The notes under the pieces: model-generated | The model's input: only the letters and a program-made list of their open reading frames with translations | Databases searched by the model: none | Told to the model about the DNA's origin: nothing | From: Strigamia acuminata | Lineage: Eukaryota | DNA length: 64,000 bases | Assembly: GCA_949358305.1 (NCBI GenBank) | Contig: OX442314.1 | Coordinates: forward strand, 27,714,001 to 27,778,000 | Direction: 5' to 3' | In this document: one piece after another, positions 14,686-21,546 of the stretch | Layout of the letters: each line of letters starts with the position of its first letter | How positions within the stretch are numbered: position 1 is the stretch's first letter | Made by a program: the position numbers and the translations under genes

Positions 14686-15434
14686 ATGCCCGCTCCTAAA
14701 GCTTTGCGCATCCGCCGGTTCCGCATTCGTACTCGCCAATTTGTGCGACAAGAATTGCAAACTTCACTGTCGGGCAAAGATAGTTTGCGATTTATAAACA
14801 ACGTTCTCGAGAACACTGGAATAGTTCGTGCAGTTTGGTTGGTTGGTTGGTTGGTTTGTTTCGGCATTTGCGGTTATCAAACTTGGGAAAGATTTCGCTT
14901 CTACATGTCTGGACCCTTCAAAGTTGAAATTGATTTTGTTCCAATACAAGAAAGCAGATTCGCTGAAATTAGACTCATGGTGCTTGATACTCCTCTGATG
15001 TCGGAGTACTGGGACAAAATACCAGAACCGAACACAATTGATGATGTAAAAGAGAGAATGAGAGCATGCAGGGCCCCAGTGAGAGGAATCATTTTGAAGA
15101 AAGTCAAAGTTAAAAATTACACACACTTGTGGGAACATTCCAACATTTCAGAAAATATGCAGCACTTTAAGTTCAGACAGGTAAGTAACCTTGGAAAAGT
15201 AAAAGAGCTATATTAAAAAATATTGTTGTCAGTATTTTGCTAATAACTACTTTTTCAGGGCAAAACTATATTACTTGAGACTAAGATGAAAAGTGGCAAT
15301 TACACAAACCAGGAGACAAGAGTTGAATTAAAATACAAGAATTCTGTTTTCGGCAGTACACTGATTGTGAAAACAGGTAAAATTCATATAATCATATTTT
15401 CCATTTATATAATCTTTTTGGCCGTAATATTATG

Positions 15435-15470
<36 letters not shown>

Positions 15471-18400: not shown

Positions 18401-21400
18401 GTTGCGCTGGCGTTTGTGCATTTAAAACGTGCTCATTTAAAACGTGATCATTTAAAACGTGATCATTTAAAACGTGCTCATTTAATTTAATTATTACTTA
18501 ATTAATTATGTAATATTAATATTTAAATTTTTTAATTGGGTGCACAAATAAACCCGTGCTCCCCTGCAACCAATTTAAATAGGGTGCTCATTTGCAATGT
18601 GCTCAGATGGTCTAACCCCCATCCGTGGGATGGGATGACATTAAATCTTGGTTCTTAACCTTTATAGCAGTTGGCACCCCTTGACTTTTACAGTCTCTGC
18701 TCACAGCTTACCAAAGGAAAATATTTTTTTAACTAAGTTTTTACTGTTGTTACTGAACCACTTATGAAGTAACTTTGCACCCCTAGAATATCTATCTTGC
18801 ACTCCTAGGCAATGCATGCATTATCGGTTGAGAAGCGCTGCATAAAATGGGTCTAAGAACATCGGAAAAACAGTCTGCCATCCAATTCCTAATGGGTCGA
18901 TAACTGTGGCAGTGATTAAATACACAGTAGGTCGATTTGCATTGGGTCAAAAGACATAATAAAACGCCCCCCAAAACTATGCATCCCCCGCAAAACAAAC
19001 TGAAATGCCCCCCACTTTTTGAACCCCCCAAAAATATCTACTTCGCCCCCTTTAAAGTTTTTTTTCCCCCATTTCCTTAAACCCCCCAAACTAGGTTTTG
19101 TCGCCTCATTACGTCGCATGAACGTGTTACGTGTAACGTTCGTGCAACGTACGTGTCTGTTTGACTATACAGTATAAGCTGGCTTGTGCGCATTCATATT
19201 TATTCGTATTCATACTGCGATGGCGATGACTTCACAAACGTATGTGTTCGTAAACTCCAATTCCGAATCTGATTCAGATCAATCCCGAAAGCGCCGGAAG
19301 TTGGGATTAAAATGGGCCAAACAAAAAGTTTTTGCTCACATCGACGAGGCATCTTTGACTCTGAAAGCTGAGCAGATGTGTGAGAAGCGACGAAACTCTA
19401 CCACGCAAGAGGGAGAAGGTTGACCTTAAAAATTGGCGTCACTTTGATAAGACCTACATGTGTAAACACATTTTAAGTATAGCAATTGGTGAGAAGCTGT
19501 ACTCTGTTCCGCTTGAGGCGAAAAATGTTCCTCTAGGAGAAAAAAGGAAACGTGGCAGGCCGTCTAAGGCTAAAAAGGCACTTTTCGTGCAATAACTGCT
19601 TATTTTGGGGGGTAATTGATTAATTTTTGATATTTCTGTTTGGGGGGAACTCAGTTTTTAGGGGGCCCAAAAATGTATTTTGGGGGACCAAGTAGATTTT
19701 CTTGATTGGTTTTATTTGGGGGGCCAAACATATTTTTTTCGGGGGGGGGGGGGGAAACCCGTTAATTCAGGGGGGCCATTAATAGCAATCCTTTGATAAA
19801 TCTATTTTGAACCTGTTAGGTAGACTGTGCGAGTGTTATACTGTGAGCCGATACAACGTTGTCCTAATTCAAACCGTATCACTGGTGTAGTGGCACAAAA
19901 AAGTAGCCCATAACACCACTAGAATTGTAATCGAAAAATAAAAAAACAGCAGGTTTAGCAAATTAAATAAAAAATTTATTTCCAAATAAATTAAATCTAT
20001 CATTCTAATCACTTTTTACGCTAAAACTAATTGGAAGTAGACAAAACTACTTTTCCGTGTAGTAGAGCTCACTCCACAGTTAGGCGTAATACGGCTTGAA
20101 TTAGGACAACCTTGTATCAGTTCAGAGTATAGATCAAACTAGTCCTTTCTACCAAATTCAATCATATACATAAAATGTATTTTCCTAACAGAACTTAGGA
20201 ATAAAAGCAAATGTATCTTGGAGCAAAATTGCTATGCACACAGGAACATGCTATCAATCTCGAATAGGTAATTAAAAATTTGTACAAAAATTATAATTTT
20301 ATAACAATTATAATGACATTATTTTCTTAGAACCACTAACATATGCAGGAGTTGCTTCAGCAATATTTTTTAGTTTTCGACCAAACAAACATCAAATCTG
20401 TAACCAAAATGAGTACGAGGTAATGAACAAATTCCATTTTTCATCAACTATTGAATTTTGCACGGTACTCGAATAAATACACAAGTTGCACAATACTTAT
20501 CCACTAGGTGGACAAGAGTCGCCGTCAAGAGTCATAGTAATTAATCTTTTTGATAAATTACTAAAGACATTTGCAGTAAGCACAGATGAAATGTACCAAC
20601 ATCAGCTTGTATTTTTGTTAACTGTAGGGTTGTTTGATCAGAACTGATTTCATGCTAAATGTTAAGGTTACGATAACGGTAGTTTTCTTTCTGTAGGTGT
20701 ACTTTAAACAAAGCGAAGCGACAATTCCATCAATTCCTTCAATACTAAGAAGCAGAAGAAGTATTAAAACAGACACCTTTACCATTCTCCAATTCAAAAT
20801 GTTTAAAGTATGTTTGGAGACAATTATATAAACAAAACTACTAAAACTAAAACTACTAAAATCGATTGTTTTAATTTAGACCATTCGATTAAATCTGAAA
20901 TCTCAACCTTGCCTTGACCATGACAAATACATGAGATGCCAAGATGATTGCTACGAAAAAAAGATTTATAATATAATTCAGTGCAAGTGAGTATTTCTTT
21001 TTCTTTTTACATATATGTGACATTTAGGGAGTTACTGTATGAGTGGTGTCATCACTTTTCACACTTGTAAAAATCTGTGTTTTGGACATTAAGAAAACCA
21101 ACAGATGAAATTTTAAAACTTTACACGATGTAGTTTGCAATACATGTTATTTAAATATTATTAGGTTACCATTTTTGGTCAACATCAATAAGAATAATTG
21201 CACCAACCTTCAAGACACTAAAACTTCATTGGCATCCTTCATGAACAATTCATTAACTACCGATACAATTATAGACTGCGGTTGCCATCCACCTTGTGAA
21301 GAGCCGGTGTTTGACACATTCGTTTTCTTTCAAGACAAACAAGCATGGCCAGTCAAACTTCTCGCTATAATTCCAATGAACAACATAATTGAAGAGATTA

Positions 21401-21546
21401 AGCAAATATTATCCTACACTGAAGTTGCATTGTGCTGTGACATTGGAAATTGTTTTTCACTAATGCTTGGCCTTTCAATTCTTGCAATTCCACAGCTATC
21501 ACAAAAAATGTTTTTGCAATTTATTCGACTGACCAGAAAAAAGTGA
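14686..21546 (+). CDS. DEG/ENaC (ASC family) double-subunit channel gene, copy A; 12 exons, 834 aa, 4 predicted TM
   Basis: Exons 14686-15180, 15259-15376, 15476-15552, 16321-16410, 16554-16666, 16723-16904, 16969-17633, 20192-20267, 20331-20419, 20697-20807, 20880-20986 and 21165-21546 splice in frame (2505 nt). Unit 1: TM1 RAVWLVGWLVCFGICGYQTWERFRFY, thumb cysteines CYDDC..CRLPY..C..CGCLRPC, TM2 DFGGNLGFSLGFSLLSIIEIV. Unit 2: TM1 RTLFFILIFIFVFLAVYVSKERITLYLSEPT..LYMPNVIAC, HTGTCY, CQDDC..CKLPF..C..CGCHPPC, TM2 DIGNCFSLMLGLSILAI. Confidence 0.88.
15574..16140. mobile_element. Old MULE-like MITE in intron 3, present at the same site in copies A, B and C
   Basis: Degenerate TIRs (GGGATCCGTAATAC...GTATTATAGAGGCC) flanked by a 9-bp duplication (T/C)GTCAAATT; both sides read TGTCAAATT in copy B. 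Confidence 0.65.
17696..18619 (-). mobile_element. Mutator-like (MULE) non-autonomous element carrying a C3HC4 RING coding fragment (17997-18368)
   Basis: 9-bp TSD CATCCGTGG; long TIRs (GACCATCTGAGCACATTGCAAATGAGCAC); the site is empty in copies B and C. The ORF ends CLLC..CGHTACSAC..CHVCR. Confidence 0.8.
18956..19791 (+). mobile_element. Deleted MULE-type element with transposase C-terminal fragment (SWIM-finger end plus AT-hook)
   Basis: Insertion absent from copy B. It encodes CKHILSIAI...EAKNVPLGEKRKRGRPSKAKKAL, which resembles MULE transposase C-termini, and has C-rich/G-rich inverted subterminal arrays. Confidence 0.65.

Follow-up and report, generated by a model that had tools for sequence, protein, structure and literature searches.

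DEG/ENaC subunits are described as monomers of two helices each that assemble in threes, and the linking of subunits is known as a tool of the laboratory. The 64,000-nucleotide stretch of Strigamia acuminata DNA analysed here (the window; contig OX442314.1 of assembly GCA_949358305.1, positions 27,714,001 to 27,778,000 of the forward strand) carries, at 14686-21546 on the plus strand, a gene that encodes two different DEG/ENaC subunits in one frame. The gene, called copy A because the window contains two further copies, B and C, is confirmed as a natural tandem: its 12-exon model has GT-AG boundaries at 11 of 11 introns and gives a protein of 834 amino acids (aa) and 96.7 kDa (computed) with a single terminal stop, and AATAAA signals follow exon 12 from 21587. 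With two units in one frame, the rule of one subunit per polypeptide that holds for canonical DEG/ENaC proteins is broken.

The junction exon and its two units

All 12 exons lie on the plus strand. Exon 1 (14686..15180) holds the start codon, a basic N-terminus devoid of the His-Gly (HG) motif, the first transmembrane helix (TM1) of unit 1 (~14818-14874) and the start of the ectodomain, which continues through exon 2 (15259..15376) and exon 3 (15476..15552, its limits deduced from the phase and the similarity to exon 9). Palm strands are encoded by exon 4 (16321..16410), thumb cysteines by exon 5 (16554..16666), and thumb sequence with the CGC motif by exon 6 (16723..16904). Past the junction exon, exon 7 (16969..17633), unit 2 continues with a GTCY motif in exon 8 (20192..20267), ectodomain sequence in exon 9 (20331..20419), palm strands in exon 10 (20697..20807) and thumb cysteines in exon 11 (20880..20986). 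Exon 12 (21165..21546) contributes thumb sequence, the second transmembrane helix (TM2) of unit 2 (~21433-21489; Asn at +3, Ser at +6 and a G-L-S belt) and the stop codon. An extra exon at ~16136-16270 was ruled out by stops in the candidate frames and by the absence of phase-compatible splice sites in all three copies, and a changed genetic code, considered for in-frame stops near 16310, was dropped because the standard GT-AG model removes them.

Within exon 7 an open frame runs from the end of ectodomain 1 through TM2 of unit 1 (~17085-17168, with a DFGGN motif at 17085 and a G-F-S belt), a basic linker of cytoplasmic type (~17172-17300) and TM1 of unit 2 (~17298-17354) to the start of ectodomain 2; the entire join of TM2, linker and TM1 is contained in this single exon. 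A first-pass annotation, made from the letters alone, had proposed an open junction of this kind with a basic linker of ~43 aa ahead of a second TM1, and translation of the stop-free frame 16969-17633 bears it out: the linker, ~43 aa long, is rich in lysine and arginine (K/R), and the second TM1 carries the post-TM1 signature. With the base composition of the linker shuffled over its 43 codons, 3-4% of the sequences stay open by chance. A Kyte-Doolittle profile of the 834-aa protein displays four peaks (aa 45-63, 407-425, 469-487 and 798-816), the number of helices that had been expected. Exons 8-12, proposed to complete a second unit, do so in copies A and B, where the GT-AG model reaches 834 aa and a terminal stop. 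A donor-like GTGAG is located within the second TM1 of all three copies (at 17346, 31545 and 55621), in phase 0 as is exon 8; if used, it would produce an in-frame isoform that lacks the start of ectodomain 2.

Each unit comprises two membrane helices around a large ectodomain, as judged by hydropathy and also by the paralog model described below. The Pfam ASC profile (PF00858, curated cut-off 23.6 bits) matches exon 7 at 53.8 bits (E 2.2e-14) in two stretches, of which the one over TM2 corresponds to the C-terminus of the profile; taken by itself, the second half of the exon aligns with the N-terminal portion below the cut-off (21.6 bits, E 1.3e-4). Together with the matches to exon 12 (23.6 bits, E 3.2e-5, at the cut-off) and to exon 1 (20.1 bits, E 3.8e-4, below the cut-off as an isolated piece), these account for the two ASC regions anticipated for a tandem. 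There are eight thumb cysteines per unit in a matching pattern (aa 271-345 and aa 683-752), and the TM2 belt reads GFS in unit 1 of copy A, GYS in unit 1 of copies B and C, and GLS in unit 2. A six-frame profile scan of the window (2124 peptides) found no third DEG/ENaC unit upstream or downstream.

The two units align over their full length with 19% identity (E 3e-13), and the intron phases of unit 1 (0,1,0,0,2) recur in the same order in unit 2. Two of the intron pairs fall at an identical column in three of three alignments; the remaining pairs are 0-3 residues apart in at least two of three, two of them with one discordant alignment each. The recurrence of the phases suggests that the tandem arose by duplication and fusion of a whole gene.

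Copy B (28105..44928, plus strand) has the same 12 exons and an open 834-aa frame, with the junction exon at 31168-31832; its introns are swollen by insertions, intron 7 reaching 8.6 kb. Copy C (52995..55908, plus strand) comprises exons 1-7 in an open frame, with the junction exon at 55247-55908. Exons 8-12 of copy C were not found in the window, where an N gap (56472-56671) follows exon 7, and, given the 8.6-kb length of intron 7 in copy B, they may lie beyond it. The open junction that the first-pass annotation had reported for both copies is indeed there. Its description of the differences between the copies as in-frame indels confined to the linker is right about the frame but not about the place, as one indel is located at the start of the second TM1; a complete second unit is present in the 12 exons of A and B but not in the seven exons that the window holds of C.

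The exons of copies A and B are 90-99% identical and six short introns 86-96%; with introns nearly as alike as exons, the three gene copies are young duplicates, and because of this recency copies B and C are weak as independent proof of the junction. The comparison of copies A and B shows purifying selection on each unit, the ratio of nonsynonymous to synonymous substitution rates (dN/dS) being 0.46 in unit 1 (Fisher p 0.004) and 0.31 in unit 2 (Fisher p 4e-5). In contigs of two public runs, all four indel sites at 17175-17303, which spans the linker and adjacent sequence, are multiples of three, and a +1/-1 indel pair, four bases apart, occurs upstream of the linker. Neither run is on record as RNA, and their contigs have no splice joints at the introns of the model.

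The window displays several other features. A Tc1/mariner-like element (37481-40360) with 303-nt inverted repeats, 98% identical, resides in intron 7 of copy B and encloses a transposase-like frame of 384 aa on the minus strand (37873-39027). Copy A is flanked by a 244-nt inverted repeat (95%; 13735-13978 and 22080-22323), probably a small mobile element, and short pieces related to it lie in intron 7 near 19840-20130, where the contig depth is very high. An insertion found in intron 7 of copy A only (17870-18597) is bounded by perfect inverted ends of 54 nt and contains a frame that weakly matches RING fingers. Foldback-like long inverted repeats with arms of 276-508 nt are located at 34561-35479, 51525-52575 and 57248-60812. 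Two long, basic, low-complexity open frames with no Pfam match (1511-2518 and 3485-4543) have the C-terminal motif DVRNPITG in common and are 25% identical over 119 aa (E 2e-6). A frame that weakly matches the BACK domain (47179-47721, minus strand, E 0.003), located between copies B and C, is probably part of a BTB-Kelch gene.

Relatives and the family tree

A profile of the three junction exons was compared with 1.84 billion representatives, which gave 50 matches at E <=0.001. TM2 is closely followed by TM1 in 19 of them, so that the search for the same junction in relatives, proposed in the first-pass annotation, was productive; 18 of the 19 belong to Strigamia maritima, as uncharacterised models, and the remaining one is an ENA protein (P0023, from a 1154-base contig). 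Two insensitive word-index protein searches were barren: exon 7 against proteins of 388-2000 aa gave 0 of 1088 candidates, and a search with tandem alignment gave 1 of 7988, namely its own first sequence only. The closest relative, T1ITA9 (E 4.9e-92), is co-linear over the junction and identical at 140 of 213 residues (66%), including 23 of 42 in the linker. The same TM2-linker-TM1 junction is found in the S. maritima UniProt entries T1ITA9, T1JD34, T1ITL7, T1IPM9, T1J963, T1JF12 and others, which are labelled only 'uncharacterized protein', whereas the window gene has a full exon-level model. The linkers are 28-56 aa long and contain 8-13 K/R in 18 of 18 aligned rows, as expected for the cytoplasmic side of the membrane, where the linker is predicted to lie.

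A carefully built 30-row tree sorts the units by position, with 10 of 11 first units in one group (97/96) and all 11 second units in another (95/87); one change suffices in 98% of its bootstrap trees. A tree on the columns outside the query exon keeps this sorting with weak support (3 changes compared to 7.6 when shuffled, 0 of 500). A single-unit S. maritima protein, P0026, belongs to the same group of 25 rows (94/90, unstarred). Neither the root nor the finer branching order is certain, because there are many long branches and the outgroup does not make up a single side of a branch. Units fused by annotation alone would not be sorted by position, and the sorting therefore points to one ancestral fusion followed by expansion: judged by the tree, this is one old fusion and a family that grew from it, not an annotation error. 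The claim that the tandem is not a gene-prediction fusion is thus upheld by (i) the single-exon junction, (ii) the co-linearity of T1ITA9, (iii) recurrence in 19 of 50 matches, and (iv) the position-sorted tree.

The same evidence bears on the idea that exon 7 is where two adjacent genes or transcripts overlap, the units being made separately and the open linker being incidental. An internal Met of the linker just before the second TM1 and two ATTAAA hexamers in the copy B linker would suit such an arrangement. Unit 1, however, has no stop codon before the second TM1, exon 7 of copies A and C has no polyadenylation hexamer, the indels are in frame, and the frame is conserved both in S. maritima and throughout a family whose units sort by position; we consider separate production of the units very improbable.

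Linked DEG/ENaC units also occur outside this family. Gene models of Halocaridina rubra (P0028, P0032, P0039) and Petrolisthes manimaculis (P0051) contain three TM2 motifs each, and in a quick 57-row tree (without four rows shorter than 180 aa and without P0021 and P0023) the units of the shrimp proteins cluster according to position (98, 100 and 95 in the Shimodaira-Hasegawa-like approximate likelihood ratio test) and away from the centipede family. A much reduced middle ectodomain is common to P0039 and P0051. Because the shrimp units sort by position and apart from the centipede tandems, the decapod three-unit proteins suggest an independent fusion to a single-chain trimer, and they could be whole trimeric channels in one chain. 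S. maritima itself has a second linked-unit family (T1IZL2, T1IU28 and T1ITG7; P0007, P0008 and P0020), whose units are close to each other; all have a canonical TM2, and two of the models hold parts of three units with a nearly identical linker. Six further proteins, P0022 (Polypedilum vanderplanki; three units, mutually closest relatives), P0014 (the leech Helobdella robusta; two units), P0035 (about five units), P0004, P0011 and P0041, were kept apart from the natural concatemers, since they may be fused models of tandem genes.

These cases raise the broader proposition that arthropods repeatedly hard-wired DEG/ENaC stoichiometry by fusion, with single-chain trimers in decapods and, in geophilomorphs, dimers whose two-into-three mismatch couples pores, three chains giving two channels or lattices. 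We regard it as distinctly unlikely in this full form; if true, a coupled multi-pore design of a kind unknown so far in the DEG/ENaC superfamily would exist.

Two units and three positions

Structure was predicted for the S. maritima paralog T1JD34 (P0009, 791 aa), which is ~23% identical over exon 7 and serves as a proxy for the window protein. AlphaFold2 with 18 sequences reached a predicted local distance difference test (pLDDT) of 52 and a predicted template modelling score (pTM) of 0.30, and this model was used only for a first fold search; with 46 sequences the values were 79 and 0.75. The membrane helices of the P0009 model comprise residues 42-71, 359-404, 423-452 and 755-790, and the linker is flexible or unresolved (pLDDT <50 at 403-421). 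Residues 51-381 match PDPNaC1 (Z 20.3, root-mean-square deviation 3.4, 318 aligned) and residues 423-770 match BRTNaC1 (Z 21.5, root-mean-square deviation 3.9, 322 aligned), with ASIC1 behind at Z ~15. P0009 is therefore predicted to consist of two complete hand-shaped subunits, and so, by proxy, is the window protein. The pTM of 0.75 suggests a defined packing of the two units, although it does not show trimer-like packing. A complex prediction that combined the paralog tandem and one more ectodomain of unit 1, run without an alignment, returned a score of 0.02 and a mark of 0.34, which is no evidence either way.

Pore residues were compared in six complete dimers, with copies A and B counted as one. 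All six keep two TM2 motifs, and both TM2s have a G-x-S/C/T belt. TM2 of unit 1 retains the usual D-x-G-G-N-x-G pattern. Ser at +6, the position of Gly378 in PDPNaC1, is present in exactly one unit in five of six dimers; in P0009 it is in unit 1 rather than unit 2. This site is Ser in alpha-ENaC and Gly in beta and gamma. According to the accessible text of the PDPNaC1 study (PMC12714832), Gly378Ser leads to higher Na+ selectivity. The distribution of the +6 Ser suits an asymmetric pore with fixed positions, in what is a small sample.

The gene product would be a four-helix membrane protein of two unlike subunits. Since DEG/ENaC channels are three-part, a double subunit would probably have to recruit a third partner before a pore could form, and the reading we tentatively prefer, at a little short of an even chance, is that the tandem units take neighbouring places and a third subunit completes a trimeric cation channel. 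The third place would likely be taken by an ordinary single subunit from another gene; T1JAY0, a single-unit S. maritima protein near the tandem family in the tree, is a candidate and no more. The fusion would set which two of the three subunits pair and in what order, as a covalent beta-gamma ENaC dimer would, leaving the third slot open to choice and the pore asymmetric. Human ENaC beta-gamma dimers without the third (position-1) subunit have been seen by cryo-EM and proposed to be assembly intermediates, as far as the available part of the preprint tells (bioRxiv 2024.05.28.595834). A sensory role would be a guess from the nearest characterised relatives.

A number of observations weigh against this reading or against the evidence on which it draws. 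Exons 3 and 4 are modelled, not observed; the S. maritima relatives are gene models only, many of them fragments; and the structural proxy is distant, its model from 18 sequences poor and the packing of its units not demonstrably trimer-like. The first unit of P0025 falls outside the unit-1 group, and neither of its units has the +6 Ser. In five of six complete dimers the upper-TM2 glycine (+3) of the second unit is replaced by Asn or Ser. The HG motif is absent before both TM1s and in most relatives examined; it is not universal in DEG/ENaC, however, because PDPNaC1, too, is functional without it. The linker has a dN/dS of 0.75 between copies A and B, indistinguishable from neutral (p 0.74).

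Two further points not only count against a separate third subunit but also favour assembly from tandems alone, in which the third slot is occupied by a unit of another tandem chain whose remaining unit hangs free or starts a second pore, three chains making two linked pores or larger clusters. The profile scan of the 64-kb window found no single-unit DEG/ENaC gene, and assembly of this kind requires no additional partner. Engineered ASIC1a dimers, in the accessible text of PMC4529235, give currents without an added partner, together with smaller products, and a separate monomer may therefore not be needed. The flexible linker (28-56 aa in the family) and the many paralogs, which could mix, are in line with it as well. 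On the other hand, the position-specific divergence of the units and the pTM of 0.75 fit a fixed unit 1-unit 2 contact, a pair ~20% identical would have to form additional interfaces of unit 1 with unit 1 and of unit 2 with unit 2, and unpaired subunits are usually retained or degraded. We judge tandem-only assembly possible, if unlikely.

The linker also brings up a polyprotein, cut at its basic residues into subunits that assemble freely, the fusion only securing equal amounts. The K/R-rich linker varies in length as well as sequence and is weakly constrained, and engineered concatemers yield smaller products (in the accessible text of PMC4529235 and PMC10329638). Nevertheless, the 18-row alignment contains no conserved cleavage motif, basic residues are expected there from the positive-inside rule, and the cytoplasmic location given by the topology is away from furin-type enzymes, all of which makes cleavage improbable. 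A tandem that does not conduct and acts as a receptor, a scaffold or a dominant regulator of other DEG/ENaC subunits would agree with the very fast evolution, the missing HG motif, the altered upper TM2 of second units and the loss of the G-x-C cysteine in unit 1 of the window gene. The G-x-S/C/T belt in both TM2s, the two TM2 motifs in six of six complete dimers and the conductance of PDPNaC1 in spite of its missing HG motif (PMC12714832, accessible text) argue the other way, and we find this quite improbable.

Known systems and wider meaning

The closest characterised channels in fold are BRTNaC1 (PDB 8YMR/8YMW; PMC9974506) and PDPNaC1 (PDB 9JF7; PMC12714832), described in the available text as heat- and proton-gated DEG/ENaC homotrimers of Scolopendra antennae. 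They are the best fold matches of both halves of the paralog model (Z 20-21.5) and among the best PDB sequence matches, their ectodomain is likewise compact, and PDPNaC1 shares the absence of the HG motif. They are, however, single 2-TM subunits of 421-431 aa with ~20% identity to the tandem, and the likeness concerns fold and profile, not gating by heat or acid.

Vertebrate ENaC (alpha/delta-beta-gamma), through its beta-gamma dimer (PDB 9BTU; bioRxiv 2024.05.28.595834, available part), presents a similar fixed unlike pair with a third place to fill and position-specific roles. Its subunits come from separate genes and are unlinked, whereas the tandem is linked and has no GRIP domain; the arrangements are alike by analogy and not by common descent. 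Engineered ASIC and ENaC concatemers are also joined head to tail via cytoplasmic ends and, by the accessible text of PMC4529235 and PMC10329638, can be functional. They are man-made, with linkers added between full-length tails, whereas the tandem is natural, with a linker of 28-56 aa between units ~19% identical. Fusion of subunits by duplication followed by position-specific divergence is familiar from four-domain Nav/Cav, two-domain TPC and K2P channels. In those channels, the repeat number divides the pore symmetry (2x2, 4x1), whereas two does not divide three.

That the tandem family is undescribed, as the first-pass annotation surmised, agrees with our search: its sequences are public only as uncharacterised entries, and no paper on naturally linked DEG/ENaC subunits was found in the literature searched, with the qualification that subscription journals and the Vizueta papers on arthropod chemosensory genes might hold a remark. 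The accessible texts of PMC5203786, PMC9974506, PMC8438182, PMC7067487 and PMC12714832 describe no natural linked DEG/ENaC. Three to five predicted helices are listed without comment for 46 of 578 insect PPKs in the available part of PMC8438182, and ENaC terms are absent from the main text of the S. maritima genome paper (PMC4244043), from the readable ones of its first 12 supplements and from supplement 57. The tandem is thus apparently an undescribed architectural variant within a known channel family.

An old and much expanded family of natural heterodimers poses a puzzle of symmetry, two units for three positions. Its outcomes are testable: either a combinatorial code, in which a fixed pair picks its third subunit, or cross-linked pores. 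The family offers natural models of short linkers that are tolerated and of pore residues that depend on position, and it bears on the evolution of the heteromeric order of ENaC-like channels. It also advises caution, as gene models with multiple ASC domains, routinely dismissed as annotation fusions, can be real.

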